DNA from: Eledone cirrhosa
Lineage: Eukaryota
Length of the DNA stretch: 64,000 bases
Assembly: GCA_964016885.1 (NCBI GenBank)
Contig: OZ024745.1
Location: 80,414,001-80,478,000, forward strand
Reading direction: 5' to 3'
The translations under genes were made by a program, and so were the position numbers. Positions 6,061 through 63,623 of the stretch are shown piece after piece. The notes beneath the pieces are model-generated. The model saw only the letters and a program-made list of their open reading frames with translations. It searched no databases and was not told the DNA's origin. How positions within the stretch are numbered: the first letter of the stretch is position 1; every line of letters starts with the position of its first letter.

Positions 6061-6315
6061 AACACAACTGAAATCATTAGTGAAAAATTTCTATTTCTAA
6101 TGAAATCAGAGATGAAAGGTTTTAATACTTTCTAATTTTTTTTTTTAATACTTAATATAGAAACTTAGAAGATTTATGAATTCAAAAAAAAAAGTCCGGA
6201 TAAATGAAAATAAATTTTGTTTGTAATGTTTAATCACAGAGATGTAGTTATTTTTTTTATTTTTGCATGAAAAGTAGCAATTAGAAAAGTTGGTTTATGT
6301 ATTCATTATATTTGA

Positions 6316-6459
6316 AGCATAGAGTTACGTCCCTTTATGATCTGAGTTCAAATCCCGCCGAGGTTAACTTTGCCTTTCATCCTTACGGGGTCGATAAAAT
6401 AAAGTACCAGTAATGTACTGGGTAATTGCTGGCCTTGTGCCTAAAATAGAAACAATTAT
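6316..6459 (+). mobile_element. SINE family A, 5'-truncated
   Basis: CTGAGTTCAAATCCCGCCGAGGTTAACTTTGCCTTTCATCCTTACGGGGTCGATAAAATAAAGTACCAG...GCTGGCCTTGTGCC. Confidence 0.9.
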
Positions 6460-6837
6460 ATTTTAGGTACAAGCTTTGCTTTATAGTTTGCTTCTTAACT
6501 TCATGATTTCTGGTTCTATCCCACTGCCTGATACCTTCAATATCAATGATTTCTTACAAATGAAACTGTTCTCTTCCCGTAGAAGTCACTTCTATACATA
6601 TAGTAGATTATTTTCTTTTTTGTTAAAAAGGAGCTTCTAACCTTCAAACATAATGAAATATAAGGTAAAATTGTTTTGTTTTGTTCTTCTTACTCTACCT
6701 TACTTTAATTTTCACACCTATATTTCCAATTTGCTTTGTTCCGGCTTTCACAAACCAAAGTTTCTTGACTTGTGAAAAAAATAACATTACCAGAGAGCAA
6801 GTTAAATACAAGAAAGTCTTGGAGTAAAAAATGTAAT

Positions 6838-8308: not shown

Positions 8309-8725
8309 ATATTGTTATATTTGAGGAGAGTCATATTGTTATAATATTGCCAGAAAAAATAATAAAACACACTCACTGTTTGGTTTGGGTTGGTTTTTGC
8401 TTCTGTATATTTTATATCCCTATAGACAATACAACGGGAGGAAACATAACAGTACCACTGATGATGTCACAGATGTGTGATGAAAGAACTTTGATAGAAT
8501 ATATTTATATCTGTATTTTTAACTGTTGGTCAATCAATGATAAACATTGATTGCCAGCTAAATTAACTATAGGTATATAAAATATATGGAAGCGAAAACC
8601 AACCCAACCCAAACCAAACAGTGAATGTGTCTTACTATTTCTGGTAATATTATAACAATATGACCCTTCCTATATATAACAATATTTGTTTCAACACACA
8701 ATTTCATATCAAAAACCTTGCAAAA
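8309..8725. mobile_element. Fold-back hammerhead element, family A
   Basis: Inverted arms ~8309-8425 / ~8568-8685, homologous to 50503-51003; hammerhead motif in the spacer. Confidence 0.75.
8453..8496 (+). ncRNA. Minimal type I hammerhead ribozyme motif, degenerate
   Basis: TACCA-CTGATGA-T-GTCACA gatg TGTGAT-GAAA-GAAC-TT-TGATA. Confidence 0.65.
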
Positions 8726-8905
8726 TAAATATATATATAAATTCCCCAAAATGGCTAAATGAACACACTTTTTTTTTTCTTTAAAAAATGTTTTCCTGTT
8801 TCTTCCTCTTCTCATATTAAACTAATATATATCTTCATTGTAAGATATCGTTCACTGTGTTGTTTTCTGTTTACTTTTCCTCATACACACACACATTATA
8901 TATAT

Positions 8906-9097
8906 GGGCGGTGGATTGGCAGTATCGGTAGAGGGTCGGACGCCATGCTTTGCAGCAAAGAGTTACGGCCCTTTATGGTCTGAGTTCAAATCCCGCCGAG
9001 GTTAACTTTGCTTTTCATCCTTACGGGGTCGATAAAATAAAGTACCAGTAATACACTGGGATAATTGCTGGCCTTGTGCCAAAAGTAGAAACAATTA
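8906..9097 (+). mobile_element. SINE family A, full length
   Basis: GGCGGTGGATTGGCAGTATCGGTAGAG head, B-box GAGTTCAAATCC, tail AAAGTAGAAACAATTAT. Confidence 0.93.
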
Positions 9098-9105
9098 TAT
9101 ATATA

Positions 9106-10484
9106 TCTATACTATAAAGCTGACGGCCGTATGTAGGTAACAAATTTTCCACCAAACGGTTGGACCAAACAGCACCAAATTTGCACCATAGATGTAACTT
9201 TTTCCAAGTAAAAATGTGAGGGTATTTTTGTTAAAAGATTAAAGACATTATTTAAATATTCACTTCTTTAAAATTTCAAATGTCAACACTTCCGGTTATA
9301 CGTCATTCCTCATTTTTTCTTATGACGTCGCACAACATTGCCCTCTTTTTCTTAGTCTGTCTTTTTAGATAGATACATAGCTATAACGTAGCGCCCTTTT
9401 AATATGTCTCTGTATGGCTGGCTGCCTGCATTAGATAACATTTTTCGAAATATTTACTTCTGCGTTCACAGACGGATTTTTTTAGTTTCAGAAGATCCCG
9501 TTAAGGGTGAAAGCAGCAATTCTTTGCTTAAACTTTAATCTGTTATTTTAATATATATATTCGTGTACAGATACTTTTGCATACACAAAAACAAAAACCT
9601 ATTTATTTCACGAAAGCACAGACGGCTTATCGTCATTGTTACTGTTTGAGGTTAGAGGACCACAGTCTTTCCAAGATCTGAGAACCATCAATGGCCCACT
9701 TACCGTTTGGCTTGCCAGATGCGTGGTATGTTACACGATGACAGCCATTGGCACCTCACCCTGCAAGAAGCAGCAACTGCTAAAGTCCCTTCTCAGCTGC
9801 GAAAATTTTTTGCTATTATGCTGCACAACTGCGATCTCACCGACCCTCTCGCACTGCGGAAGTCTAGCTGAGGACATCCTCCACCGCACATGCAGACACA
9901 ATCCAAACGTAACATACGATGTCGTTTTCAACGAGGCGCTCATTTGTCTAGAAAACAGTGTCTCCTGGAGATTGGTGGTCGGCCTCTAAGTCACTACAGC
10001 TGACCTGCTCCTGACAAGAGTGTCCAGAGGTCAACGTCTACAGAGCTTCTCCGCAAGACGAGCTATGAAATCAGTGATTCTCCCATGGTCAATTGTAAGT
10101 AGGATGTTCTAGAATGAGCTCGCCAAACAATCTCTTCATCTTTGCTCCGGAGGGCCGAACAAAAGATATTGAATACTCTGAGGTTCTAACAATGTAATTT
10201 AAATATTTTCTGTTACTTTGAATTTCCATTATGGTTGTATAAATTATTGTTTGTTAAAAAATTTGTTCCCTGTTCAGTCTTTATTGTTGTAACTATCAAT
10301 TTTCTTTAATGTATTTGCTTGATGAACAGGGGAATCCTAAAAACTATTCAAACCCAACATCAGAGCACGTTAAACACTCCCACCCCATTGATTTGAGAAG
10401 GCGTGCAGTATCTTTGCACTAGAGTGTAGGGGGGATTCCTGAAAAGATAAAATGCCGGTATACCTAGCCGGACGGACCAGCTAG
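9106..10484 (+). mobile_element. Internally deleted Helitron with Rep/helicase remnants
   Basis: 5' A|TC at 9106; 3' CCGG..CCGG hairpin then CTAG|T at 10481-10484. Remnants LLLFEVRGPQSFQDLRTING, GMLHDDSHWHLTLQEAA..PSQLRKFFAIML, and PIF1 motif FSHGQL*VGCSR...TKDIEYSEVL. Confidence 0.88.
9484..9534 (+). ncRNA. Hammerhead-like motif with variant core CAGAAGA (family E)
   Basis: AGTTT-CAGAAGA-TCCC gttaa GGGT-GAAA-GCA..TGC-TT-AAACT; second copy at 39569-39619. Confidence 0.5.
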
Positions 10485-12029: not shown

Positions 12030-12170
12030 AAGAGGGTGTCGAAAGATACCAGGTAGACCATAACGCGCCAGAGTACTCGATACTTGGCGTAGTAGAGTGG
12101 GTAATATTAAAAGATTCAGGACCCCAACAGCTGAGCTCCGGCCGTTTTGACAGCTAGATCCGAGTTCATA
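12030..12170 (-). mobile_element. Hammerhead family D fragment
   Basis: Reverse complement aligns with 44556-44663 (CCCACTCTACTAC..GAGTACTCTGG.GCGTTATGGTC); flanked by (TA)n. Confidence 0.65.
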
Positions 12171-12477
12171 TATATATATAAGAACTGGAAAAGTCTTATT
12201 TTCTTTGGTGAATGAATGCTTTAAATATAGTCCACTATTCAATTAAATTTTCACTTAAAAACGTGTTTTAGGACTGTAATCAATTAAATTACAGATTTGA
12301 AGTATGAAGTCGTACGACAAATTCATAAACTTCATAAATTACTTACAAAATTATAACGTAACTCGTGTAAATTATTATAACAATTAACTTTTATTTCATT
12401 TGGAAAAAGAAGGAATAAAAAGTAACTACCGGTGTTTTTATGTTAGAAATGATCAAGTTTGAATATTGACTAAGCTA

Positions 12478-15976: not shown

Positions 15977-16091
<115 letters not shown>

Positions 16092-16249
16092 CGTACAGTA
16101 GTATGTATATACATACATACATATATGTACGTATGGGTTTACCGAACATTTATTATAATGTTCGGTTTGTTTGTAAACAAACAGCCCTAATTAAGCCGTA
16201 CAGTGTTCGGCAACCATCGTTGCCATTTTGTTCAACACTGACAAAGGAA

Positions 16250-16290
16250 GATGAACTAGTTTCTAGCTTATTAGCTGTCATCAGCACTGT
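16250..16290 (-). ncRNA. Minimal type I hammerhead ribozyme motif
   Basis: Minus strand: CAGTG-CTGATGA-CAGCT aata AGCTA-GAAA-CTAG-TT-CATC. Confidence 0.65.
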
Positions 16291-16747
16291 ATACCTTCCT
16301 ACCAGTCGATTGAACGTTTGAAAGTATATACTTTCCTTATGCATATTAACGGCTGAGCAGCCTAATTTGTATATCGAGTGAGTTAGTTGGCCGGGCGTAC
16401 CGAAAACGATAAATGGAAAAAATGAAATTTCATTTCTCACTCAAACAAACCGAACATTATAATAAATGTTCGGTGAACCCATACGTAAATATACATATGT
16501 GTGCATGTATGTATGTATATACATACTACTGTACGTCTGTATACATATATGTATGTACGTATACATACTTATATTTAAGTATCAGCCGTACTAAGAGTGA
16601 GAAATGAAATTTCAGTTTTTCCATTTATCGTTGTCGGTACGCCCGGCCGACTAACCCACTCGATATGCAAATTAGGCTGCTCAGCCGTTAATATGCATAA
16701 GGAAAGTATATACTTTCAAACGTTCAATCGACTGATAGGAAGGTATA

Positions 16748-16788
16748 CAGTGCTGATGACAGTTAATAAGCTAGAAACTAGTTCATCG
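16748..16788 (+). ncRNA. Minimal type I hammerhead ribozyme motif
   Basis: CAGTG-CTGATGA-CAGTT aata AGCTA-GAAA-CTAG-TT-CATCG; palindromic CTAG in stem III. Confidence 0.65.
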
Positions 16789-17099
16789 TTCCTTTGTCAG
16801 TGTTGAACAAAAGGGCAACGATGGTTGCCGAACACTGTACGGCTTAATTCTGGCTGTTTGTTTACAAACAAACCAAACATTATAATAAATGTTCGGTAAA
16901 CCCATCCGTACATATATATATATGTGTGCATGTATGTATGTATATACATACTACTGTACGTCTGTAAACATATATGTATGTACGTATACATACTTATATT
17001 TAAGTATCAGCCGCATTAAGAGTGAGAAATGAAATTTCACTTTTTCCATATATATATATATATATATATATATAGAAGTGGTATTTAATTTGTTGGAAG

Positions 17100-17520
17100 T
17101 CCGACAAATATAAATGTTATAACTGATTTAGAGCACTCAACAAATTACTGGAGTATATATTCAATGATATTAAATAAATGGAAACTATATTTATAAAACC
17201 ATATTTATTTTATTATATATATTTCAAGGGCAACTATTTCAATTCACTATCCAGTGAATTTCCAACCGATAAGGTATGATTTTCTTGGGTATGTCTCTAT
17301 TTATAAAATAAACTTTGTATTTTATCTGATGAAAGCGTACCAATGTTGTCTTGGTTGCCCTTGAAATATATATAATAAAATAAATATGGTTTTATAAATA
17401 TAGTTTTCATTGTTGGTAATTCAACAAATATAAATGTTTATAACTGATTCAGAGCACTCGACAAATTTTCTGGAGTATAATATTCAATGATATTAAATAA
17501 ATGGAAACTATATTTATATA
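17100..17520. mobile_element. Hammerhead element family C with inverted and direct duplications
   Basis: ~17182-17234 is the reverse complement of ~17354-17406; ~17105-17195 recurs at ~17424-17518. Confidence 0.75.
17318..17382 (+). ncRNA. Type I hammerhead ribozyme motif
   Basis: TATTTTAT-CTGATGA-AAGCGTACCAA tgttgtc TTGGTTGCCCTT-GAAA-TATATA-TA-ATAAAATA; 8-bp stem I. Confidence 0.75.
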
Positions 17521-17656
17521 TATTCCAGAAAATTGAATTATTTACCCCATATCTTACGTTAAAATGTTTTCCTCTTGATGTTATAGTCACTTATGTCTGA
17601 ATTATTGTCGGCTTTTTGCTTACATTAATTTCTCTATTTTCATATATATATATATA

Positions 17657-18284: not shown

Positions 18285-18705
18285 ATGATCTGCCCGTGGC
18301 CAACATGAGAGGTCTACTCTGTCTAGGTGAACTCCACAATACCATTGTACTCAGAGTAGGAGCCGATGTATGTGGGAAACTGAACTGTCACTGTGGTAGG
18401 CCCCGTGATTCCACAGGTCTTCGTGGATTGTCTTGCTGTCTGAATGCAGGTCGCTTCGCTCGCCACATCGAGCTAAACTTTTATTATTAACCGGGCCCTA
18501 GCTCGGGTAAATATCCTTTCAATCCCGGAGCTGGCTAGACGATCCAGAGTTGAGAAGAAAACAGAAGGTTTTATCATTTGTCCCTGGGTAAGAGGTAGAT
18601 GTCTCACTTGGGATATCACAGTCAGTGACTCTATTGCTTCTTCCCACATTCTGAATACTGCGGTAAAAGTGATGGTCACTGCTTCCGTAGCCGAACAGCA
18701 ATATT
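18285..18705 (+). mobile_element. CRE-like non-LTR retrotransposon C-terminal fragment (zinc knuckle + restriction-like endonuclease)
   Basis: CHCGRPRDSTGLRGLSCCLNAGRFARHIELN; after a frameshift IINRALAR...EGFIICPWVRGRCLTWDITVSDSIASSHI. Confidence 0.7.
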
Positions 18706-19317
18706 CCTATTCGGATATTGAAGGTGGGATTTACGTTCATGATGTTGTGGTTCACGAACGGAACTTTGTAGATCCTGCGGACCCTGATGTGCACACACAG
18801 CTCATAGAGAACACATGGAGCCGTGCAAAGAAGAAGCTTCGTCGCCAGCATGTTTCGTTTAAACACACACACAAAATGTAAACACGACGTTCGAAAATGA
18901 AAATAAATATACTTTCATTATTGCGACCGCTAAAAGGAAGGAACGCCGATATATGCTTTATTACACAAACGCGTGTACATAGAGATTTGCTCCTTTATAC
19001 ACACGTTGAAATACATATATATTTCTGTACATATCATTACTCTCCCAATACATCATTCTAACAGACTTAAGCACACAGTTATCTATTCTTATGAGAACTG
19101 ATTAAATAAAGGGAAATAACCGATATATCCAGTGCAGATGGTAACTTCCCTTGTTTCAATTTAGTTGATCCATTTAATAAAATATCAAAATTCCCAGAAA
19201 GAGAATATTTTTATTCTTAATTTAATTGATTAAACTTTGCCAATGATTTTCCCGAGATTGATAACACAATTACATTTAATAGTAAATTGGACGTGATCCC
19301 AAAATTGGACTTTTACC
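18706..19317 (+). mobile_element. Merlin (IS1016/ISXO2-like) transposon 3' fragment
   Basis: GGIYVHDVVVHERNFVDPADPDVHTQLIENTWSRAKKKLRRQ; candidate terminus ...GGACTTTTACC (GGTAA on the minus strand) at 19317. Confidence 0.7.
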
Positions 19318-22839: not shown

Positions 22840-24300
22840 ACCTACTTGCTCCAACTTTGTTTGCCATTTTCTCTGCAGTTGTTTTGTTAAAAGAATACTC
22901 CAACTTAGATGTTGGCAAATATATATGTAATCATACAACAGGAAGGCTCTGTAACATCCAAGGATTCCTTGCTGCATCAAAAACATATAATACATTTATA
23001 CATGATCTTTATGCAGATGACTGTGATCTTGTTAGCCACATGGAAGAAGACCATAAAATTCTGATGGATTCTCGACAACGTGTGATGAGTTTGGGCTGAC
23101 AATCAACCTGAAAAAGACAGTGATTATGAACCAGCATGCACCCGGAAATCCATATATTGCACCATCTATATCTGTCAAAGGGAAAATATTGAAGATTGTG
23201 GATAAGTTTGTCTACCTGGGTAGTACTCTCTCCAGAACCAGCACCCTTGATGAAGAGGTAAGTTACCGGCTGTCTAAAGTTTCTGGTGCTTTTAGTAAGC
23301 TAGAGAAGCACCTGTGGTCACAGTTAGATATCAGTGTGCACATGAAAATTGAAGTCTATCAAGCTTGTACTTACAAACTTGCTGTATGGATGTGAGACAT
23401 GGACATATACTGTGGGTATATCCAGTGCCTCAAATGTTTTCACCAACAATGCTTGTGCTCCAACATTAAGATCTCAAGATGGTCTCATATACCAGACACT
23501 GATGTGCTGCAGTGGACCTCTCTGCCAAACATTGAGACCAAGATTATGAAACAGCATCTCTGGTGGTCAGGTCACATAGTACACTTTGAGAACAGCAGAT
23601 TCCCACAAAAGTATTGTATGGAGAACTGTTGAAAGGCAAACACCTGCAGTGCAAGCCAACAATTGCTTTAAAGACTGCCTGAAAGATACCCTAAAGAAGG
23701 TCAACATTAACATGGGAAAATTTGGCAACAGACAGAGTTCAGTGGCAAAATCTGATTGCTACCATTGTTGAGGAGTTTGAAAAGAGGATGACGGCCTATG
23801 CTGTAGTGAAGCAAGCAGCTAAATATATGGGGGATATTAGTCCAATCCCAGAACAAAGTTTTAAAGAAATTCTTACGTGTGAGGTATGTGGACATGTATG
23901 TATGTCAAAAGCTGGACAACTAATCCATAGCAGACATCATACTCATGGAAATAAAACATTTGAGTACCCCACAAACTTTGATGTTGCAAGTGGCATCTGT
24001 ACCAAAGTGTGTCACTCTGCAAGTGGGCTAACACAGCATCACAAAGCATGCTATGCCAATCAAACTCAAGCAGGCAGGATACTTACCTGCATACTGTGTG
24101 GTATGACATGTAAGTCACATCCTGGTTCCATAAGCCATCTAAGGATGCATTAATAACACATTTTTGCCAATGTTTTTTTTTTTGTTCAAAGAAGTGGTTG
24201 TACTCGAACACGAGTTGGCTTCCATTGTGTATGAATGTATGTTCTCTCTTTCTCATAATTTGGCCAGGATTGGCCTCATCAGCCACCTCTGGACACACAA
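22840..24300 (+). mobile_element. RTE (BovB-like) LINE 3' half with C-terminal C2H2 fingers, frameshifted
   Basis: [37 protein letters not shown], then CEVCGHVCMSKAGQLIHSRHH / CTKVCHSASGLTQHHKAC / CILCGMTCKSHPGSISHLRMH. Confidence 0.9.
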
Positions 24301-25531: not shown

Positions 25532-25571
25532 TACTTTGTGCCTTTTTTATGTACTAAAGGTCATTATATAC

Positions 25572-25762
25572 CAGCAGTGGATTGGCAGTATCAGTAGAGG
25601 GTCGGACGCCATGCTTTGACGCATAGAGTTACGGCCCTTGCCATTCTGAGTTCAAATCCCGCCAAGGTTAACTTTGCCTTTCATCCTTACGGGGTTGATA
25701 AAATAAAGTACCAGTAATGCACTGGGTAATTGCTGGCCTTGTGCCAAAAGTAGAAACAATTA
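25572..25762 (+). mobile_element. SINE family A
   Basis: Near full-length match to 8906-9097. Confidence 0.92.
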
Positions 25763-27243
25763 TATAGCAAGGTTTTAAAGCCACTCAAGGTTATGGGTTA
25801 TGATGGACGTGGATGAAAGGATGGACGTGGAGAAAAGGATGATAAAGGGGAAATGGAAAAGTGATTGCTATAAGTGTGAAAATGCTTGAGAGTGGCTGAT
25901 CTTTTTATATAATAGGCTGGTTAAAACACCATCATAATGTTTATCAATGGCTACCTTTGTATGTACATAAGAGACTTTGCTCTTTTTCTAGTCTTTGTTC
26001 TGACAACTCCCATTGTTACATCAAACATTTAGTTCCATGCCTTAACATAAATGGAACTCAGTATAATTTAATACTGTATATTATTTTCAGAAGTTTTTCT
26101 GAATGCAAAGATATTTAATATAGGGTATATATAGTACTGGAGAGTGGTTGGTTATAGGGAGGGCATCTGGTCATAAAAAGCTTGCCAAGCAAAAGGTTTG
26201 GAGGACTCTTCAATTGTGTCATAACATGACAACCTCCCTAGTGCTGGTGCCATGATAAAATTCACTTGGTAAAACATGGGACTGTATGTAAGCAAGATAT
26301 GGAGCTCTTGGCCTGTCTAGGAAGTTAATAGCTTCGCTTATATGTTAGTTTTAGTATGGCTAGGAAGACATTAAAAACATGAATGCAACAGAGATTATTT
26401 CTGGTTCATCAGAGTTAATTGTAGAAAGATGATGCTGGTATTATGTTAGTTAATCAGGCGGTACAGGAACATCCCCAATGATGTTGAAGAAGTATCATTG
26501 CCAATTGTTATAAGAGTAAAGCAAATGCACAGAAGATAGGTGATTATAGCAGATTGAAACTGTTGAACCAAGTTTTAAAACTGGCCAAGAGAATCATAGC
26601 AGAGTGGATTAGATTGTCACTGGGATCTGGAACCATGACCTGTAACCAGGTTGATGTTTATCAGAACAATTCAAGCCATGTACAAGGGTGCTACAAGCAT
26701 AATCATGATTGGTAGCAAATTCAGTAAATAATTTAATATATCTAAGGTTCTGATTTTATCATTTGGGCAAATAAGGAAGAGCAGTGTTCCAAAACTTTCT
26801 AATAAATGGAAATTAGGAAGTTATTCTCAAACTAGATACCTTGTATGTATGTTTGCAGCAGGGACTACTTAATTAAAGGCACTGGATAGCCAGAGGGCTA
26901 ACCCTTTGATTAATATATTTCTAATGACAAACTATTTTTCAAATAATTAATTAAATATTTGGAAGGACTTAAATTATCTAGTATTTCATTACTAAGTAAC
27001 TTAACTTATGCTTCTTATACAAAATTATGTTAGAAGATTATAATTTAAATAAGAATTCCTTAAAATGGGTTTTCATAGTGCCAGGAGCAATTTTGACCAG
27101 GTTAGTATTAAAAGTGTTAAACTGGGTGATGGATTAATTCTACTAACCCCAAGGTTAAATCTGAAAGTGTAACAATTAAAAAAGAGGCATCTCAATATAG
27201 AGTTTCCTGTTCCATACAAAAGACAAACTTCATGAAGGCGTGC

Positions 27244-28263: not shown

Positions 28264-28918
28264 TTAAATGAAAGGAAAAGCAATGAATACTTTTTTAGCC
28301 TGATAAAATCAATAAGAATGACGATGATTTATAATAGAAGGAAAATTATTGTGTTCACAGTAAAGATATTTTATGAAAAAATATACAGTGTTTTGTTTGC
28401 TGCAAGAGATATTAATCAATAACTTGGATTGTAAATGTATATTAGAAACATATGGTGCAGATATTGTAGGCTAGATTCACATTGGATTTAAAAAATGGGA
28501 ACAAATTGACTTAAAGCAGAGTGGGCTGCCAATCAATGGGAAATATTCATGTCAAGTTGTTATTTGTATTCTGTAATGGATAGAAACAAATTGTGTATTT
28601 AACTGTGTAGCTGAGTTGTAATTATGTTGGATTGTTGAACAAAATGAGCACTGCTTCATATTCATTGTTAAGATTAAGACATTGGTGACTTAATTCTTTA
28701 ATTACCAAATTTCTAATAGGATACTGCTTATGGTTTTCAAATCATTTTGAAGATAACCAAACATTTTGAAGGATAAAGTAATATAACTAACTTCCTCATT
28801 ATTAAGCCACTATTTGGAACAAAACTTAATAAAAGTTTTTATATGAAATTATGATAAAAGGTTTCTTAAATAAATATAAACACTTTAAAACAAACTGTTG
28901 TGTATTATTATAGAACCA

Positions 28919-29110
28919 GGGCGGTGGATTGGCAGTATCGGTAGAGCGTCAGACACCATGCTTTGCAGCATAGAGTTACGTCCCTTTATGATCTGAGTTC
29001 AAATCCCGCCGAGGTCAACTTTGCCTTTCATCCTTACGGGGGCCGATAATAAAGTACCAGTAATGTACTAGGATAATTGCTGGCCTTGTGCCAAAAGTAG
29101 AAACAATTAT
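28919..29110 (+). mobile_element. SINE family A with imperfect TSD
   Basis: Full length; ATTATTATAGAA(C/T)CA on both sides. Confidence 0.92.
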
Positions 29111-30478
29111 TATAGAATCAAGGGATGGAGTTTCAGGCGATTTGATATCAAAACGATTAAAACCATTTATCTCCTGACATGACAAAAAGCACCCAGTCTA
29201 CCCTGTCAGATCGTTGTTTACGTGCCCCAATAAAAAGCATCTAGTCCACACTGTAATGTGTTTGGCATTAAGGAGGGCATCCAGCCATAGAAACCAAGCT
29301 ATCCAAACATGGAAAGTGGATGTTAAATGGTAGTGATGGTGATGATGATATATCTCAACTATTATGTGAAAATAAGTTTTTGTTGGCTTGAAAGATTTAA
29401 ATGAACCCAGATCACCTTGTTTTAAAAACATGTATCAGGTTCAGGGCAGCTCATTTTTGGAAACTGTAGGGATATAACTGTTAATGGTAAGTGTTTTTTT
29501 TTTTCAGCTTGTAGTGGTGAGTTCTAGTCATTATCATTATGTCATACCAGGAGAAGGAGGAATTTTGTTTGGGTGAATTCTCATAGATACACTTCATGAA
29601 AACAATAGACTCCAGTATTTTTCTATAATCCAATGAAAATTTTAAAAATATATATTATAAACATTTGATTCTAGAACTTACATTAATGTCCATTAAAGAG
29701 TCAATATCCTTTTCTTGACTGTTTATCTACTTATCACTGCTGTAAATAAGCCCCTGACGAGACGGCTTATTTACAGCAGGGAATTATATTCTTAGTCTGG
29801 GTTTTGCTGTCAAGCAGCAAGAGCTCAGCCGTTGGGCTCTGACTTTCTAATTATATATATATATATATAAACATGAAGGTCAGTTGACAGTTGCAATGTT
29901 AAGATTGAGAAACATAGCACATTGTACACGTTCTGATCAGTGCTAATAGAAAAAACAAAAAAGCAAAAAAAAAACAATGGCTGAAACAGAAACAATAGGC
30001 TTTGAAACACTGAAATGCTGATGGTAATTTGTGATGGATCCAAGGCTGGAAACGACAGTTGAAGTTTGAATATTAACGCCTAAGTTTTGAATTATAATTT
30101 TTTTCTTGTTTTACTTCCATTTATGTATTTGAGAGTATGTATGGGATGGTTTATGTATATGAACAATTGTTTATACAACTTGATACGTATTCTACTGATA
30201 ACAATCCAAAAATGAAATAGGAGTGGCGCCTCTTGTTTATATTCAGTCAATTAATTTGGAGGATTTGCAATTACTGAACAGGATGCATGGTTTATTTCAT
30301 CCTCCCCAAAACAATGTTGATAAGCTGTACTTATTGAGAAAAAAATAAAAAATGGAAGTAATCTGATAGGTTGTGAAGGTTGTTTAAGTTCAAAGGAAAA
30401 TAGTCTTGGATGGCACATAAAACATGCAACAGAAACACTCTTGATTGAAGTTAAAAAGTCTGATATTATTGGCACATA

Positions 30479-31045
30479 TGTAGTGACCTACATTCCGCGG
30501 GCTCATATACATTCTCCGTGCGTTATTTGGCTCAGCCCAGCCAATGACCACCAGCGGAGGAGAATGTATTTCTACGCGCCCTGAGGGAAAAATTCCTGCG
30601 TCGATTCGAGAAATCTCTCTCTTGCTGCTTGAACGGCGAAAGACCAACACAAACAATGTAACGGTGAGATTTGCACTTTGGCCTGTCGGCCTTCTTTGGG
30701 CCAGCCTGGCACAATGCCACATTCCTTTTGTAACCCTTTTATGTTTAACTTCAACCATACAATTTAACAAACATTACTTTGTGCTACAACAGGGCGGTGG
30801 ATTGGCAGTATTGGTAGAGGGTCGGACGCCTTGCTTTGACGCATAGAGTTACGGCCCTTGCCATTCTGAGTTCAAATCCCGCCGAGGTTAACTTTGCCTT
30901 TCATCCTTACGGGGTCGATAAAATAAAGTACCAGTAATACACTGGGTAATTGTTGGCCTTGTGCCTAAAGTAGAAATAATTACTTTGTGCTACAACAAAT
31001 AAACATTCATTTCATCTCTTATTTCTCTTGTTGACATTCATCATA
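30479..31045 (+). mobile_element. Possible solo LTR interrupted by a SINE
   Basis: Starts TGTAGTGA, GC-richer than flanks, CCAAT and AATAAA present; no clean TSD seen. Confidence 0.35.
30792..30978 (+). mobile_element. SINE family A with perfect 19-bp TSD
   Basis: ATTACTTTGTGCTACAACA at 30773-30791 and 30979-30997. Confidence 0.95.
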
Positions 31046-37904: not shown

Positions 37905-38470
37905 TTACATATAAGTATGTATACGTACATACATATATGTATACAGATGTACAGTAGTATGTATATACATACATACATGCACATATATATATAGGTTTAT
38001 CGAACATTTATTATAATTGTTTCTACTTTAGGCACAAGGCCAGCAATTAACCAGTACATTACTGGTACTTTATTTTATCGACCCCGTAAGGATGAAAGGC
38101 AAAGTTAACCTCGGCGGGATTTGAACTCATACTGTAAAGGGACGTAACTATGCTAGACAGCATGGCGTCCGACCCTCTACCGAACATTTATTATAATGCT
38201 AGCTAATAAGCTAGAAGCTAGCTCATCGTTCCTTTGTCAGTGTTGAACAAAATGGCAACGATGGTTGCTGAACACTGTACGGCTAATAATTCGGGCTGTT
38301 TGTTTACAAACAAACCGAGCATTATAATAAATGTTCGGTAAACCCATACGTACATATATATATGTGTGCATATACTGTAAGTTGTATACATATATGAATG
38401 TACGTATACATACTTATATTTAAGTATCAGCCGTACTAAGAGTGAGAAATGAAATGTCATTTTTTCGATT
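37905..38470. mobile_element. Hammerhead family B fold-back with a SINE A near its centre
   Basis: Arms match 16084-17048; right arm starts at stem II (TAGCTAATAAGCTAGAAGCTAG) at ~38200. Confidence 0.8.
38013..38182 (-). mobile_element. SINE family A
   Basis: Reverse-complement match; flanked by repeated CGAACATTTATTATAAT. Confidence 0.9.
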
Positions 38471-38667
38471 TATATATTTACATATATATATATATTTACA
38501 AGCAGGGAAAAGTGGATGTAAAATGATGATGATGATATATATATGAATGTATGTATAGTATATTTGGGAATATATACCATATGTTTAATTAAAAACATTT
38601 AGAAGACCATATGCTATCAGTTTTAAAGTACTGACTATGTCACTTCTTTTTGGCGAAAGAAGGGAGA

Positions 38668-38713
38668 GAAGCTGGAAGTCTGTTTCACGCTGGTTGGCGT
38701 TCATCAGAGCCAC
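38668..38713 (-). ncRNA. Hammerhead-like motif (family F) with altered cleavage site
   Basis: Minus strand: GGCT-CTGATGA-ACGC caacca GCGT-GAAA-CAGACTTCC-AGCT. Confidence 0.55.
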
Positions 38714-38745
38714 GCACTCCCCTGCTTACATATATATATATATTT

Positions 38746-42350: not shown

Positions 42351-42827
42351 TGTCATAATTATATGTATATAAATATATATAAGTATTGAAGTTTCCGTTG
42401 AAAATTGAAAAAGTCATAGGAGTGAAGAGTGCTCTATGTAAGTTACAGAGCTAAATTTAATGTATAATAAACAATACAATATAATTACCTCATTACCAGA
42501 GGTTTCCCGAATAAATATATTGTATTGTTTATTATACATTATAAATATATATATACATATATTGTACTTATGTATGTGTGTATAAGTATATATATATGTA
42601 CTTACGTATATCTATATAGATGTCCCACACTGTAGATGTGGTTGCTGTTAGGAAGGGCATCCAGCTGGAAAAACCCCGACCAAATTTACAGTTCTGTCAG
42701 CAGGGTACGGCGTGACCAATCCCGGCCAGACTTGTCTTTCGACGCGAACGACTTGTCTGACCCATGCAAGCATGGAAAAATGGACGTTAAACAACGATGA
42801 TGATGGTGTACTATCATTGATGATGTG

Positions 42828-43750: not shown

Positions 43751-44487
43751 TGTGTAATTATATATATATACTCACTAAAGTTAAAAGGAGAAAAATACTT
43801 CACATATTTGAGAGAGAAAAAAATACTCGAATCTAAACTATAATAAAGGTATATTTAATAAGAAATATTGTCAAATGACGAGCAGTGTTAATTAATCTTC
43901 AACCAATTTCTTTAGAAAAATAAATAAGAGAAAAAAAATTGAAGCTAATCAAACGGGGAATTTACAAATTCGAAAATCTATAAAATTAGAAATCAATTAA
44001 AAAAAATAGTTTCTTTTGAAGACCCTAAATTAAAAAAAAGACAAAAAAGAAAAAACACACAGAAAAAAAAAAACTAGAAGTGATGTTTATGCTCTTCGTA
44101 ATGGCTTTAGCAGCGATAAACATTATGAATTGATCATATATAGATTAGAAAAAAATATGTTATATATATTTTTGAAGAGGCGGTGATAGAAAATTGTATT
44201 TCATTTATACAGCTAGCGTTGTTCACGTAAGATACATTTCCTGTTATTTTATTTAATTGTTATCAACTGAGTTGATAGTTAAACCATGTTTTTCCCCCCC
44301 ATCCTCCTCCTGTTAACAATTTGTATACGTGTTTATACATTTTATATAATTCTGCCATTTCAGTTTTCCGCACGCATTCCGCACGCACATCCGCATATAT
44401 ATATATATATATATCCTGATGATTTCATACGAATAAAACACTTTTAGTCCTATAGAATTCATTTCTTTCTTTATATATAATATATAT

Positions 44488-44663
44488 ATAGGAAAAGTAT
44501 GACCCCGACGGCAGAGCTCAAGCCGTTTCGATGGCTATTTCTGGACTCAGAAATAGCCGTCGAAACGGCTTGAGCACTGCCGTCGGGGTCATACTTTTTC
44601 CTATTTCCCACTCTACTACCCTAAGTATTGAGTACTCTGGTGCGTTATGGTCCATCTAGTTCA
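44488..44663. mobile_element. Hammerhead family D fold-back: near-perfect hairpin centred on stem II
   Basis: Palindrome 44488-44604 with loop GACT (44544-44547); right arm reads GAAAC-GGC-ttgagcact-GCC-GTC-GGGGTC. Confidence 0.8.
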
Positions 44664-47689: not shown

Positions 47690-49630
47690 CCTTGAGTCTA
47701 GTAAGACATCCTCTCTAGTGCTGGTGGCACAAATAAAAGCACCCAGTCCATGCTGTAAAGTGGCCCTGGTGTTAGGAAGGGCATCCAACCAGTATATCAA
47801 TGCCAAAACGCTTGTCAGCACAGCAACAAATAGGAACAACAACAAAATATGAAAACGTCACATCTCAGAATTGCAACACTTAATGTTGGCACTCTCAGAG
47901 GTAGATCTGCTGAAATAGTGGAGATGCTGGAGAGAAGGCAGGTGGATGTGTGCTGCAAGAGGTGAGATGGAGAGGTGCTTCTGCAAGACTAGTCGTAGGC
48001 AAACGTCTTAGCTATAAGCTATTCTGGGTAGGTAAGGATGATGGGTTAGGAGGAGTAGGCATTTTCCTGGCTGAGAAATGGATCAATAAGACAATAGAGG
48101 TAGTTCGAGTTAGTAATTGAATAATTAAGCTTAGATTAGTTGTAGGAAGGAGACTACTGACAATCATCTCGGCCTATGCTCCCCAGCAGGCTTAGGCAAA
48201 GATGAGAAAGACTGCTATTATGAGCAACTTTTACAAACAACCGCAATGACAGAGGACGGAGACATCGTTATGCTAGCAGGGGACTTCAATGGTCATGTTG
48301 GACAGCTCCAGGAAGGTTACACTGGGGTACATGGTGGGCACGGTTACAGTTCAAGAAATGAAGGAGTGAGACTTCTTGAATTTTGTGATGCAGGTACATT
48401 GACTATTTGCAACACAAATTCCAGGAACCTGCCAATCACTTAATAACCTACAAATCTGGTGAGCACATAAGCCAGATTGACTTCTTACTAGTTAGGCAGC
48501 GGGACAGGCAGATAGTGTCTAATACCAAGGCATACCCTGGGGAAGAATGTACCCCACAGCATAGGTTAGTTGTTAGTGATATCTCAGTAAGCAAGAGATG
48601 GAATGAGACATATAGGAAGGTGTGGAGAAGAAAGGTCTGGAAGCTAAAAGACCTTTCACTAAAATACAAATTTAGGAAAGCCCTTTAAGATGTATATGAC
48701 GAAAAAGAAGACGATTTAGAGACGTATGACATAGATAATAACTGGAATTTCTTACGTGTCAACTTGCTGCAGGCTACTGATGAAACTTGTGGCTGGAGCA
48801 GAGCTCCAACCAGACAGAGAGTGACCTGGTGGTGGAACAGCACAGTAGATAAGGCGATTAGAGACTAAAGACTAGCATGGAAGGCTTGGAAAAAGGGTGG
48901 GAGTGGGGAAGAATATACAGCCACTAAGAGAGAAGCTAAACGTCAGGTGTACTTAGCACGCAGGGAGGCAGAGAGTAGGAGGTTTGCCAATGTTCTGCGA
49001 CGGGAAGATCAGAGGCGTGCGGTGTTCCACATTGCAAGGCAGTGTGTCAATGCAAATCAGGATGTTGTTGGAGATAAATGTGTCCGGGATGATGCCGGTG
49101 TACTTAGTGTCACGAATGATCAGAAAAGGAAGGCCTGAAATGTCATTATGAGAGACTGATGAATGTGGAGAACAAATGGGAGAGAGAGAAATTACCCTTG
49201 GTAGATCCGACAGAGGGACCAGCTATTGAGATTGACGAATATAGGGTCCAAGAGGCGATTAGGGAAATGAAAAATGGTAAGGCTGCCGGACCATCGGGAA
49301 TAGTTGCTGAGATGCTGAAGGCGTCAGGGGGACGTAGGCACTAAATTGGTTGCACGCATCATCAATCAGGCTATATATGGTGGTGTCATACCCAAAGACT
49401 GGTGCAGCAGTATTCTCATAAATTGCTACAAAGGTAAAGGGGATGCTCTGGAGAGGAGCAATTATAGGGGTATGAAACTGATAGATCAGGTTATGAAAGT
49501 TGCAGAAAGGATTTTAGCACAATTAATTAGAGAAAGGGTCAAACTAGATGAGATGCAGTTTGGTTTTATGCCTGGGAAGAGTACAACAGATGGCCTCTTC
49601 TTGGTGAGACATTTGCAAGAGAGGTTCTCC
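47690..49630 (+). mobile_element. RTE-type LINE 5' part (APE endonuclease and start of RT), decayed
   Basis: LRIATLNVGTL, AGDFNGHVG, SQIDFLLVR, QHRLVV, NYRGMKLI, MQFGFMPGKSTTD; several stops and frameshifts. Confidence 0.93.
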
Positions 49631-49634
49631 AGGA

Positions 49635-49823
49635 AACTGGAGCACTGTGAAATAAAGTGTCTTGCTCAAGGAAACAACACATCGCCCGGTCTGAGAATTG
49701 AACTCACAACCTTTCGATTGCAAGGCCAATGCTCTAACCACTCAGTCATATATATATATATATATATGCAATCGAAAAGTTGTGAGTTCAATTCTCAGAC
49801 CGGGCGATGTGTTGTTTCCTTGA
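49635..49823. mobile_element. SINE B head with local inverted duplication around (TA)n
   Basis: ~49666-49722 is mirrored at ~49767-49824. Confidence 0.8.
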
Positions 49824-50278
49824 CCCTTTCTCTACGGTTAGCTCTCCTCTTTGTTGTTATCTTGTCTCACTCGCTTTACGCGTTTTAATTGTCCTAATAA
49901 CTTAATTTAGTTATTATTGCACCGACGTGAGGTATATGATTTTTAATGCAATGAAATATCTATGATCGTCGGCAAATCACTGATGAGGGACTCATTTTAT
50001 TACATATTATCCATGTGCAACCTGCAGTATTCTTCTCCCCATTTTTTTCACATATATATATATATATAATATTATATTATATATTATATATATATATATA
50101 CTATATATATATATATATATAATATTATATTATATATATATATAATATTATATATTATATATATATATAATATTATATATTATATATATATTATATATAT
50201 ATATTATATTATATATATTATATTATATATATTATATTATATATTATATATATATATAATATTATATTATATTATATA

Positions 50279-50469
50279 GGCGGTGGATTGGCAGTATCGG
50301 TAGAGGGTCGGACGCCATGCTTTGTCGCATAGAGTTACGGCCCTTGCCATTCTGAGTTCAAATCCCACCGAGGTTAACTTTGCATTTCATCCTTAAGGGG
50401 TCGATAAAATAAAGTACCAGTAATACACTGGGTAATTGCTGGCCTTGTGCCTCACGTAGAAACAATTAT
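50279..50469 (+). mobile_element. SINE family A
   Basis: Full length, inside an AT array. Confidence 0.92.
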
Positions 50470-50502
50470 ATTATATATTATATATATATATAATATTATA
50501 TA

Positions 50503-51003
50503 GTTTTGCGAGGTTTTCTATATGAAATCATGTGTCGAAACAAATATTGTTATACTTGGGGAGGGTCATATTTGTGTAATATTGCCAGAATTAATAACAG
50601 AACACACTCACTGTTTGGTTGGTTTTCGCTTTTCGCTTCTGTGTCTTTTATATCGGTAACCTAATTTACTCGGTCCTCAATGCGGTCAAAAATAATGCAG
50701 ATACAATATGAACACAAACACATATATATAGTTTATCATAAATCTTTCGTTGCACATCTAACAATGTTGCAGACGTGCAACGAAAGATTTATGATAAACT
50801 ATATATATGTGTTTGTGTCCATATTGTATCTGTATTATTTTTGACCGTCGGTCAATCAATGGCAACATTGAGGACCGAGTAAATTAGGTTACCGATATAA
50901 AAGACACAGAAGCGAAAAGCGAAAACCAACCAAACAGTGAGTGTGTTCTGTTATTAATTCTGGCAATATTACACAAATATGACCCTCCCCAAGTATAACA
51001 ATA
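50503..51003. mobile_element. Hammerhead family A fold-back, ~210-230 bp near-perfect arms
   Basis: Palindrome 50545-51003; centre GTTGCA gacg TGCAAC-GAAA-GATT-TA-TGATA at 50766-50796. Confidence 0.88.
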
Positions 51004-51566
51004 ATATTATATATATATGTAATATTATATATAATATTATATATATATGTAATATTATATATAATATTATATATATATGTAATATTATATATAATATAAT
51101 ATATATATATGTAATATTATATATAATATAATATATATATATGTAATATTATATATAATATAATATATATATATGTAATATTATATATAATATAATATAT
51201 ATATATGTAATATTATATATAATATAATATATATATATGTAATATTATATATAATATTATATATATATGTAATATTATATATAATATTATATATATATGT
51301 AATATTATATATAATATTATATATATATGTAATATTATATATAATATTATATATATATGTAATATTATATATAATATTATATATATATGTAATATTATAT
51401 ATAATATTATATATATATGTAATATTATATATAATATTATATATATATGTAATATTATATATAATATTATATATAATATATATATATATAATATTATATA
51501 TATATTATATATATATATAATATATATATATAATATTATATATATAATATATATATATATATAATA

Positions 51567-52457: not shown

Positions 52458-52517
52458 TAATATATATTTAAATATAATATATATATATATATATATTTGT
52501 AAAACTGTTATATATTG

Positions 52518-52582
52518 TATTTTGTCTGATGAAGGCATACCATAATTTAATGTGGTATCCCTGAAATATGTATAATGAAATA
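52518..52582 (+). ncRNA. Type I hammerhead ribozyme motif (family C)
   Basis: TATTTTGT-CTGATGA-AGGCATACCATA atttaa TGTGGTATCCCT-GAAA-TATGTA-TA-ATGAAATA. Confidence 0.78.
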
Positions 52583-52621
52583 AATATGGTTTTATAAATA
52601 TAGTTTCCATTTATTAATATC

Positions 52622-52624
<3 letters not shown>

Positions 52625-52667
<43 letters not shown>

Positions 52668-55480: not shown

Positions 55481-55527
<47 letters not shown>

Positions 55528-57176
55528 ATATAATTGTGTCTACTTTAGACACAGGGCCAGCAATTACCCAGTGCATTACTGGTACTTTATTTTATCGACC
55601 CCGTAAGGATGAAAGGCAAAGTCAACCTCGGCGGGATTTGAACTCAGATCGTAAAGGGACGTAACTATGCTGGAAAGCATGGCGTCCGACCCTCTACCGA
55701 TACTATAATATAATATTATATATATATATAATATATATATATATATATAATATAATATATATATATATATATATAAAATATAATATTATATATATATATA
55801 TATATAATATTATATATATATATATATATAATATTATATATATACTATAATATATATATAATGTAATATTATATATATATAATATAATATATATATAATA
55901 TAATATTATATATATATAATATAATATTATATATATATAATATAATATTATATATATAATATAATATATATATAATATAATATTATATATATATAATATA
56001 ATATTATATATATATAATATAATATATATATAATATAATATTATATATATATAATATAATATTATATATATAATATAATATATATATAATATAATATTAT
56101 ATATATATAATATAATATTATATATATATAATATAATATATATATAATATAATATTATATATATATAATATAATATTATATATATATAATATAATATTAT
56201 ATATATAATATAATATATATATAATATAATATTATATATATATAATATAATATTATATATATATAATATAATATATATATAATATAATATTATATATATA
56301 TAATATAATATTATATATATATAATATAATATTATATATATAATATAATATTATATATATATATATAATTATATATATATAATATAATATTATATATATA
56401 TAATATATTATATATATATAATATATTATATATATATAATATATTATATATATATAATATATTATATATATTATATATATAATATAATATATATATAATA
56501 TAATATATATATAATATATTATATATAATATATATATATAATATTATATATATATATATATATATAATATAATATATATATAATATATATATATAATATT
56601 ATATATATATATAATATATTATATACATATTATAATATATATATATAATATAATATTATATATATAATATTTATATGTATAATATATATGTATAATATAT
56701 ATATATAATATATTATATATATATATATATATATAATATAGAATAGAATATAATATAATATAATATAATATAATATAATATAATATAATATTATATATAT
56801 ATATATATATAATATATTATATATATAATATTATATATATATATATATATAATATATTATATATATAATATTATATATATATATATATATATAATATATT
56901 ATATATATAATATTATATATATATATATAATATATTATATATATAATATTATATATATATATATATAATATAATATATATATATTATATATATATATATA
57001 TATATAATATTATATATATAATATATTATATATATAATATTATATATATAATATAATATATATAATATAATATATATAATATAATATATATAATATAATA
57101 TATATAATATAATATTATATATATAATATTATATATATATATAATATAATATAATATTATATATATAATATAATAT

Positions 57177-58401: not shown

Positions 58402-58601
58402 NNNNNNNNNNNNNNNNNNNNNNNNNNNNNNNNNNNNNNNNNNNNNNNNNNNNNNNNNNNNNNNNNNNNNNNNNNNNNNNNNNNNNNNNNNNNNNNNNNN
58501 NNNNNNNNNNNNNNNNNNNNNNNNNNNNNNNNNNNNNNNNNNNNNNNNNNNNNNNNNNNNNNNNNNNNNNNNNNNNNNNNNNNNNNNNNNNNNNNNNNNN
58601 N
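58402..58601. other. Assembly gap (200 N)
   Basis: Run of N. Confidence 1.
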
Positions 58602-59443: not shown

Positions 59444-60031
59444 CTACATTTTAAATTTAAATTTATATTTAAAAGTTGAGTTCAATCTATGTCTGCAGCA
59501 ACTGAATAAATTTGTCCGTAGATTAAGGGAATTTTTAGATTTTAGTATAAAGAATATCTCCTCCGCGCAGAGGTCACATGTCTCAGAGGATGAATTAAAA
59601 GGAATCCCTCTTGAGACTATATTCCAAGCCGTCGAATATCTAACGTTATCATGCCTAAGTTGCCAGAGTACGCCTGATAGTGCTGTTGAAGATTTTTTGC
59701 TTGGATCTGTGAAAGAATTCTTGTGGTTATTATAGCGAAGTTTAAATTCCGTCGATGTGGAACCAACGTAGTTAAAAGAATTAAAGTCCGTTTTAACATT
59801 ACAGTTGTATATTATATTTTTAACTAAGCAGTTGTTATTTAACGGACATTTAGATCTATCTCTACAGTTACATTTGTTAACTTGGATATTATTTATGCTA
59901 TTATCGCTAGGTTTTAAGTTCCTATTATTTATTCTATTAATATTTTGTGCTAAATTTTTGGTGGATGAGTAGGTTAATTTTATAGTATGTCTATTGAAAA
60001 TTGAGTGATACCTATGTGTTCTAGGGAATTT
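59444..60031 (-). mobile_element. Penelope-like element (Naiad-type) C-terminal GIY-YIG endonuclease, 5'-truncated at (TA)n
   Basis: Stop-free 195 codons: KFPRTHRYHSIFNRHTIKLTYS..CNCRDRSKCPLNNNCLVKNIIY..YVGSTSTEFKLRYNNHKNSF..TALSGVLWQL..CDLCAEE..LNLRTNLFSCCRH..*; no upstream start codon, so missing from the ORF track. Confidence 0.92.
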
Positions 60032-63095
<3,064 letters not shown>

Positions 63096-63163: not shown

Positions 63164-63623
63164 AATAAAGCAATGCAGATATCGGATAAGAAGCACTCTA
63201 CAGTTTGTAGGACTGGAGTATACATCATATATAAGAACGAAAGATGGTTAAAAGAGGTCCATGTATTTTATTATGCGCATTTGAAAAACAAATATCATCA
63301 TGCAATAATATGTGTTTTCATCAGATAAAACAGGAAGACATAATATGAAGGTTAAAAAACACTTGTGGATAGTGCAGTTTTAAATCAACATAAATATGTT
63401 GATTTAAAACTGCACTATCCACAAGTGTTTTTTAACCCTCATATCATGTCTTCCTGTTTTATCTGATGAAAACAAATATTATTGCATGATGATATTTGTT
63501 TATGAAATGCGCATAATAAAATACATGGACCTCTTTTAACCATCTTTTGTTCTTATATATTATGTATACTCCAGTCCTACAAACTGTAGAGTGCTTCTTA
63601 TCCGATATCTGCATTGCTTTATT
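63164..63623. mobile_element. Hammerhead family C fold-back, ~228 bp arms
   Basis: Palindrome centred on AAAT (63392-63395); one hammerhead motif per arm. Confidence 0.9.
63455..63523 (+). ncRNA. Type I hammerhead ribozyme motif
   Basis: TGTTTTAT-CTGATGA-AAACAAATATTATT gcat GATGATATTTGTTT-AT-GAAA-TGCGCA-TA-ATAAAATA. Confidence 0.75.

Follow-up and report, generated by a model that had tools for sequence, protein, structure and literature searches.

The window analysed here, 64,000 nucleotides of the Eledone cirrhosa genome (contig OZ024745.1), holds four copies of a hammerhead motif that we call family C, together with half of a further copy at 17206-17235 (-). Copy 1 lies at 17318..17382 (+; H17 = A17374), copy 2 at 52518..52582 (+; H17 = A52574), copy 3 at 63455..63523 (+; H17 = A63515), and copy 4, which mirrors copy 3, at 63264..63332 (-). 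A preliminary description of this DNA had placed the three plus-strand motifs correctly and had also recognised what they conserve: CUGAUGA, GAAA, a 6-nt insert, UA, and stem I. Copy 4, in which GAAA reads CAAA (G12 to C), was not among its motifs and is predicted to be inactive. Stem I has 8 bp in all copies, three helices surround the core, which is open at helix I, and core positions C3-A9, G12-A14, A15.1-U16.1, and H17 are complete in copies 1-3. Judged from the sequence, these three are type I hammerhead motifs with predicted cleavage, and the modelled structure puts the cut at the H17 residues given above, in agreement with the earlier proposal. The family has its own peculiarities, namely pair A10.1-U11.1, pair U15.2-A16.2, and the 6-nt insert. 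None of the 40 substitutions listed, out of 132 in the reads and contigs placed on 17075-17630, changes the core.

The copies occur in different arrangements. Copy 1 is preceded by the upstream part of its terminal repeat (17236..17317, +), which begins at an inversion junction, and is flanked by an inverted arm (17080..17235, -) and a second downstream/tail segment (17410..17518, -). The arm contains the 3' half hammerhead mentioned above, a downstream segment, a hairpin, and a tail, and ends near (TA)n; the second segment is 91% identical to 17090-17195 and has its own hairpin at 17456-17476. The whole of copy 2 (52495..52625, +) is a solo fragment about 130 nt long with (TA)n runs on both sides; it passes into (TA)n at +51, a little short of where the hairpin would be. 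Copies 3 and 4 together make up a head-to-head foldback (63164..63623; arms 63164-63392 and 63395-63623, 229 nt, 97% complementary). Further long foldbacks at 50465-51083, 8309-8685, and 49666-49823 show that head-to-head inversions are common in the window. Solo, inverted, and foldback forms are thus the states of family C copies within (TA)n microsatellites, and no head-to-tail hammerhead array was found in the window, which has solo or inverted copies only.

The same window carries the 5'-truncated end of an open reading frame of a Hydra-clade Penelope-like element (PLE) at 59444..60028 (-), with a CxCX5C linker, an endonuclease, and CxxC and CxH motifs. A SINE-like repeat about 190 nt long is also abundant, with copies that mostly share 86-95% identity, at 6311-6465, 8895-9116, 25563-25767, 28907-29115, 30790-30982, 37984-38183, 50266-50502, 55495-55714, and 61735-61966. 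Decayed fragments resembling an IS1595-like transposase, an endonuclease, and a reverse transcriptase (RT) occur at 18477-18881, 48135-48443, and 49319-49750, all below the Pfam cut-offs.

Hammerhead motifs, chance, and Rfam

On both strands the window contains 30 CTGANGA cores, four of which fit a loose type I pattern. The fourth of these matches, at 44416, was rejected as a hammerhead, being sprawling with a 69-nt stem II region. For a null expectation we used 200 local dinucleotide shuffles in 1-kb blocks. When stem I was required to have at least 6 pairs, stem II at least 7 of 10, and helix III to be palindromic, three motifs were observed against a shuffle mean of 0.005 and a maximum of 1. 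One of the 200 shuffles reached three at the loosest pattern setting, and at the strictest setting copy 1 is lost and two motifs are observed. The three motifs are beyond chance.

Evidence from outside the window points the same way. Model R2 is a covariance model built from 34 hammerheads beside Hydra-clade ORFs, none of them from the window. It gave 19 matches here, and copies 1-4 take ranks 1-4, with 32.7, 24.2, 19.8, and 15.0 bits respectively (the next match has 13.4). Rfam hammerhead families are absent from the 150 of 166 window matches listed and from two local Rfam scans with five matches each. We read this as a gap in Rfam coverage because the clade-specific model does find the copies.

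The composition of the region, at 10-30% GC, could suggest chance pairing in AT-rich, low-complexity DNA, as could the lack of a listed Rfam hammerhead, and a SECIS-like element might be invoked, as copy 2 reaches 14.8 bits on SECIS_1. That score is far below the 35-bit cut-off, which leaves copy 2 outside the SECIS family, and a SECIS would leave CUGA, stem I, and the palindromic helix III unexplained. Tandem G.A pairs, common to both kinds of structure, explain the likeness between hammerheads and SECIS elements. Both the shuffle test and the top four ranks with the outside model refute these explanations, to which we give practically no chance.

More decayed sequences of similar type were observed elsewhere in the window. 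The motif at 38646-38716 (-) resembles a type I hammerhead but is degenerate, has a stem II of 4 bp, and adjoins (TA)n (10.5 bits on R2); near 24282 (-) is another, further decayed. The arms of a foldback of some 950 nt (16050-17002, 85%) each hold a CTGATGA core (16284 -, 16753 +) with weak hammerhead scores of 12.0 and 9.7 bits, and related pieces occur at 38201-38494. The CTGATGA cores at 38707, 24282, and 16753/16284 all have at most 12 bits on R2 or are absent from the matches listed.

Stem II, helix III, and predicted folds

The preliminary description held that stem II had been rewritten from copy to copy. This fits copies 3 and 4, whose stem II is unrelated to that of the others, and fails for copies 1 and 2. 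The latter are 84% identical over 98 nt, and 8 of the 12 letters in their stem II 5' arms match. On alignment the two are homologous, and the differences in stem II read as ordinary compensated drift, not rewriting, because they share a C.C mismatch at pair 4 and show two-sided changes at pairs 2 and 5. A third stem II variant that keeps the pairs and the C.C was read by eye from a loose end with 13,395 reads of run X8. Copies 3 and 4 are a separate subfamily: blastn gave no match between copy 3 and copy 1, and the downstream segment of copy 3 aligns to that of copy 1 better than 1000 of 1000 shuffles.

The stems also differ in quality. Copy 2 has the cleanest stem II, with 11 pairs and the one C.C, and copy 3 has 14 bp, with two unpaired nucleotides (AU) between the stem II arm quoted earlier and GAAA. 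The stem of copy 1 is imperfect, and ViennaRNA favours a slipped register that leaves its base open. A cleaner form of the copy 1 stem II was considered as the consensus and rejected as a minority form; a 1-nt deletion in this stem is present in 457 of 1681 reads in X8 and at about 1% of depth in run X1. As monomers, the copies do not fold clearly better than their shuffles (z of 0.02, -1.66, -1.44, and -0.23 for copies 1-4), and copy 1 folds no better at all.

Helix III is self-complementary, as had been noted of its palindromic or nearly palindromic insert. It reads AUAUAUAU in copy 1, AUAUGUAU in copy 2, and AUGCGCAU in copy 3, where AUAUGUAU is self-complementary only if tandem U.G wobbles are allowed; an A-to-G change at 17370, within helix III of copy 1, is common in reads. 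The helix has 2-3 bp in a monomer and 8 bp in a dimer. The proposed requirement for dimers finds support in predicted folding energies, which favour dimers: in all four copies the double hammerhead gains 11.6-19.9 kcal/mol over a pair of constrained monomers. For copy 3 it is also the unconstrained minimum of the dimer (-36.3 kcal/mol), and for copies 1, 2, and 4 it is surpassed in stability by an alternative dimer fold, by 2.5-4.9 kcal/mol.

The probable host element

The ORF fragment at 59444-60028 is open and begins out of (TA)n. It has 5,437 relatives and matches the C-terminus of RT-endonuclease ORFs of about 700 aa (E 2e-40). Pfam has no family for the fragment and gave nothing useful for seven homologues, a word-index search of the longer proteins had no match, the cluster members bear no informative names, and no clade relatives were found in viral contigs. 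The ORFs of this clade have DKT, RW(K/x), CxCX5C, CxxC, and CxH motifs. DKT, an RWK-type motif, CxCX5C, CxxC, and CxH define the Hydra clade in the published classification (PMC8557442), and by these motifs the ORFs are assigned to it. The Nematis clade was considered and ruled out: its CX2-5CxxC linker is absent, the window ORF carrying CxCX5C instead, and DKT and CxxC/CxH are present in the clade of these ORFs.

We collected 92 loci of this clade, in which a pattern scan found 65 hammerhead rows; most of these lie in the upstream repeat or 80-470 nt beyond the ORF. Leaving out duplicates and minus-strand, distant, or different-build rows, 34 distinct hammerheads remained, which are those of model R2. 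Their alignment has 92% pairing, a covariation that is partly circular because its members were picked from the 65 rows by pairing pattern. The clade build has no bulge after A9, and GAAA is followed by a self-complementary insert of 6-8 nt and UH. H17 is A in 28 of the 34, the insert has 8 nt in 21, 7 nt in 10, and 6 nt in 3, and pair 10.1-11.1 is G-C in 18, U.U in 9, G.U in 4, A-U in 2, and C.A in 1. Family C shares this build and departs from the clade majority in its A10.1-U11.1 (2/34), its U15.2-A16.2 (1/34), and its 6-nt insert (3/34). The stem I 5' strand TATTTTAT is common to copy 1 and three clade loci (L015, L017, and L066), and locus L083 has a pair of hammerheads on opposite strands, 169 nt apart.

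Two further observations concern these loci. An AATAAA-like run occurs no more than 25 nt after stem I in 24 of the 34 clade hammerheads, and in copy 1 it overlaps H17 (17374-17384). Loci L078-L092 are of animal PLE type and lie in records titled as bacterial genomes or metagenome-assembled genomes, titles that most likely reflect contamination by host DNA.

Insertion into (TA)n targets, tails, and head-to-head inverted terminal repeats (pLTRs) are published PLE traits (PMC3846280, PMC8557442). Family C has (TA)n insertion, 5' truncation, head-to-head inverted copies, and an optional tail, and its hammerhead has the build found in Hydra-clade terminal repeats. We conclude, with a probability of roughly 85%, that family C is the pLTR segment of a Hydra-clade PLE family, present here as fragments in (TA)n. 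The ORF fragment sits in the same window, and the attempt to link it with family C failed: its 3' flank, about 840 nt up to an N gap at 58402-58601, has neither a recognisable hammerhead nor any likeness to family C, and no family C copy joined to an ORF was seen in the window.

Abundance and mode of multiplication

Four of the ten listed runs were placed on 17075-17630 at 80% likeness. This gave 9,067 contigs in run X1 and 28,027 reads in run X8, as well as 57 contigs of organism B and 2 of organism C, depths that are not copy numbers. Family C is a high-copy repeat, and its read depth declines toward the 5' side of the region. The exact family C pattern had no match in viral or metagenome contigs.

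A very high copy number with no linked ORF in sight might instead indicate a free-standing, non-autonomous element of about 200-290 nt, retrozyme- or SINE-like and derived from a Hydra pLTR. Such an element would have its own transcription, and a Hydra-clade protein would mobilise it in trans through the same hairpin, so that the two readings differ only in how family C multiplies. Animal retrozymes have been argued to derive from pLTRs (available part of bioRxiv 10.64898/2026.07.22.740005), and copies 1 and 3 begin 10-22 nt before a similar short motif. However, the likeness between the upstream parts of these copies is weak (27 of 1000 shuffles were as good for 17236..17317), the 5' ends are inversion junctions or truncations, the window has no head-to-tail hammerhead array, and depth drops toward the 5' side as it does under 5' truncation. 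A free-standing element is in our view unlikely, and we retain the pLTR reading.

A conserved hairpin downstream of the hammerhead

The clade loci share a second structure, a hairpin of the form RCTC-stem-UH-GAGY located about 37-62 nt after H17. We searched for it as RCTC-stem-TN-GAGY-RCT in the 29 flanks of at least 100 nt, with five shorter ones set aside. It was found in 19 of them, against 4 of 5,800 shuffled flanks. The pattern is strand-biased, 125 to 11, and 69 of the 92 loci carry it. It is usually present twice per element, at a spacing of about 60-70 nt: 36 neighbouring pairs lie 55-83 nt apart, and in seven of nine upstream repeats two hairpins stand between hammerhead and ORF. The outer four pairs are nearly invariant and a 2-nt bulge is always on the 3' side. 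Among the inner pairs, pair 1 is paired in 95 of 101 (shuffled 73.6, maximum 82), pair 2 in 69 of 101 (41.7, maximum 55), pair 3 in 54 of 85 (32.8, maximum 46), and pair 4 in 35 of 56, which only equals the shuffled maximum; these counts are not probabilities because the sequences are related.

In family C the hairpin takes the form ACTC-stem-TT-GAGT at 17135..17154 (-), 60 nt after H17, and ACTC-stem-TA-GAGT at 63568..63592 (+), 53 nt after H17 of copy 3, with a mirror at 63195-63219 (-). The outer G-C pair is replaced by A-U in a compensated swap. The first hairpin pattern had been written after family C was seen. With a relaxed pattern and a zone of 30-70 nt, hairpins as placed at +60 and +53 arose by chance in 0 and 3 of 5,000 trials, so that family C has the hairpin where the clade has it, 34-62 nt after H17, for a feature defined in this analysis. 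A profile made from 96 G-C hairpins ranks those of family C 2, 3, 11, and 12 in the window, ranks that lie within the best shuffled range and, position aside, are not significant window-wide. Model R3, which had a misregistered structure string, did not match them. The family C hairpin is supported by its position together with its structure, and not by the sequence score by itself.

TATA or ATAT occurs within 12 nt before 58 of 109 hairpins (shuffles 29.6, maximum 43), and in the next two zones the counts are 12 and 5. Some of these tracts may be target remnants and not element sequence.

Hairpins of this kind were also observed away from family C. One at 42431-42451 (-) has a G-C outer pair, the best score in the window, and (TA)n on both sides; no hammerhead was seen upstream of it, and it is likely a remnant of a second Hydra family. 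A repeat family at 44488-44640 (+) and 12040-12174 (-) carries an ACTC-stem-TY-GAGT hairpin at 44610 and 12098, includes a 118-nt foldback (44488-44604), and has the CTGATGA core of 44416 nearby; it is possibly a third PLE family.

Copy ends and the tail

The loci contain 114 hammerhead-like copies; for 56 of them the end could be set against a hairpin-bearing relative. Among these, 26 pass through the hairpin, 4 reach the contig end, and 26 stop. Eighteen of the 26 stops fall at -6..0 of the hairpin start, where about 4 would be expected if stops were even; the detectable range is about -31..+11, the method sees only ends near hairpins, and some rows belong to the same family. Stops away from the hairpin start occur at +31 in L009 and +36 in L014. 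At the cut site the 5' ends of clade loci show no pile-up (one start at +1).

In run X1, loose TA-rich ends of family C occur at 17154 (+60), 17165 (+49), and 17173 (+41), with 54, 4, and 79 contigs. At least five single-contig joints in this run fall at 17374-17378, the predicted cut site; they are AT-rich and ambiguous by up to 6 nt, and we regard them as suggestive and give them no weight as evidence. Copies in two clade loci (L080:2856 and L072:981) follow a (TA)n run and have their start, not their end, at hairpin 1 or immediately upstream of it; the published Hydra-1_Ajap consensus likewise begins there, as judged by eye from the available part of the source (PMC8557442).

With copy ends clustered at its start, the hairpin probably sets the start of reverse transcription and, with it, the optional tail. 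More broadly, we tentatively propose, at somewhat less than even odds, an RNA signal used across the Hydra clade, in which two hairpins, often after a UA-rich tract, would be bound by the RT while the nicked (TA)n target anneals to that tract. The hairpin could also act as DNA, as an endonuclease site or promoter element, and the copy ends would then stem from cleavage of donor DNA instead of RT starts. The nearly invariant outer four pairs are what a protein-read DNA motif would show, and the PLE tail was once ascribed to endonuclease resolution and is required for recognition by the Penelope endonuclease (PMC11167929, PMC8557442, available parts). Against this, the inner pairs covary freely, as the counts for pairs 1 and 2 indicate, the 2-nt bulge keeps to the 3' side, and the tail of a Poseidon PLE has been mapped between two RT starts in an RNA stem-loop (PMC11167929, available part). 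We consider a role as DNA improbable and keep to the RNA signal as our working proposal.

Proposed mechanism and state of the window copies

The proposed cycle starts from the predicted fold of family C RNA as a type I hammerhead in which helix III is an 8-nt self-complementary run. A monomer would be too weak; the cut after UA17 would come about once two copies, such as those of a tandem transcript, exchange helix III, a step suggested by the folding energies and published work; the element's protein probably assists this dimer cleavage. The RT-endonuclease would then bind the hairpin and nick (TA)n DNA. If cDNA synthesis began on the short UA-rich tract that immediately precedes hairpin 1, copies would lack the tail, and if on the one preceding hairpin 2, they would have it; early termination with foldback of the template during synthesis could produce truncated head-to-head arms.

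The four copies in the window are most likely inert fossils, because copy 4 lacks G12, copy 2 is solo, and copies 3 and 4 form a foldback, whose read-through would give a duplex of 229 bp. The claim that the motifs represent a real ribozyme stands at the level of the family, by homology and structure and as predicted activity; the genomic copies themselves are probably fossils. One could see them instead as ribozymes that the host retains for cutting its own transcripts in situ: three of the four copies have an undamaged core and stem I, and the substitutions listed spare the core. Helix III requires a partner, however, the monomer folds do no better than shuffles, copy 4 has lost G12, and the copies are truncated repeat fragments in microsatellites, so that we find a host function very unlikely and return to the reading as fossils.

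If the hairpin signal is real, one motif would account for microsatellite targeting, for 3' ends that are fixed, and for a tail that is optional, and family C would have kept the signal with a compensatory swap in a high-copy form to which no ORF was seen attached. Penelope-like RTs are the closest mobile relatives of telomerase, and in vitro mapping of where they begin to copy exists for a single element, which belongs to a different clade (PMC11167929, available part). A covarying hairpin with copy ends stacked at it names the bases to mutate, and makes both the tail and (TA)n targeting testable. It would also be a practical tag for ORF-less remnants of the Hydra clade, which the Rfam scans made here did not flag.

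Comparison with known systems

Hammerheads of this build are published. Among the available material of Craig et al. (2021), File S2 lists them for the Hydra clade, including Hydra-1_Obim and Penelope-n_HM/NV/SK (PMC8557442). Family C resembles them in its type I form, its CUGANGA core, and its GAAA followed by a self-complementary insert and UH; the published ones likewise sit close to the 3' end of elements with (TA)n insertion sites. That file does not list family C, which by eye also differs from the Hydra-1_Obim hammerhead. Family C is set apart from the published group by A10.1-U11.1, U15.2-A16.2, the 6-nt insert, a stem II that is longer, at 11-14 pairs, and has a C.C or two extra nucleotides, and the A-U outer pair of its hairpin.

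In lying in a pLTR and having a palindromic helix III, family C is also like the minimal PLE hammerheads of Cervera and de la Pena (2014), which, in the part of that work available, act as dimers with low activity and rate and occur as pairs on opposite strands, 100-700 bp apart (PMC4209133). The motif of Marsupenaeus japonicus in that source has A10.1-U11.1 and H17 = A, as family C does. The minimal consensus has a bulge after A9, G10.1-C11.1, and a short stem I, whereas family C lacks the bulge and its stem I has 8 bp. With animal non-LTR retrozymes it shares a non-coding sequence, a type I hammerhead, and a relation to pLTRs (bioRxiv 10.64898/2026.07.22.740005 and PMC7229834, available parts). 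Those elements form tandem arrays with one hammerhead per unit, whereas family C has no tandem units within this window. A study of a squid genome, in its available part, gives no more than hammerhead counts (PMC6962438).

As for the hairpin, the literature found does not describe it, Repbase notes, Lunse et al., and subscription papers being outside its scope. The text and supplement of PMC8557442, figures excluded, do not mention a hairpin or stem-loop here, nor do the available parts of PMC3846280 and bioRxiv 10.64898/2026.07.22.740005 mention a hairpin. The consensus sequences of Hydra-2_Amil, Hydra-2_Ajap, and Hydra-1_Ajap in PMC8557442 nonetheless carry a GCTC..TH-GAGC hairpin by eye, unremarked in the available parts of that source.

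The nearest functional parallel is the Poseidon element PAc of Anolis (Frangieh et al. 2024, PMC11167929, available part), which has a hammerhead in its pLTR and, downstream of it, two internal RT starts in a stem-loop, the stretch between them forming the tail. For a Poseidon element, cleavage is protein-assisted, insertion in vitro does not require the hammerhead, and RNA-seq showed no ends at the hammerhead site (same source). PAc has one AC-rich stem-loop inside the ORF, a tail of 30-40 nt, and no homology to the cut DNA, whereas the Hydra clade has two sequence-conserved hairpins before the ORF, 55-83 nt apart and often after a TA-rich tract. In the role proposed here, hairpin and UA tract together could be likened to the template boundary and alignment region of telomerase. 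The hammerhead type is already published and family C is a new family of that type; its hammerheads add one AU-shifted family to the published set, and the hairpin weighs more.
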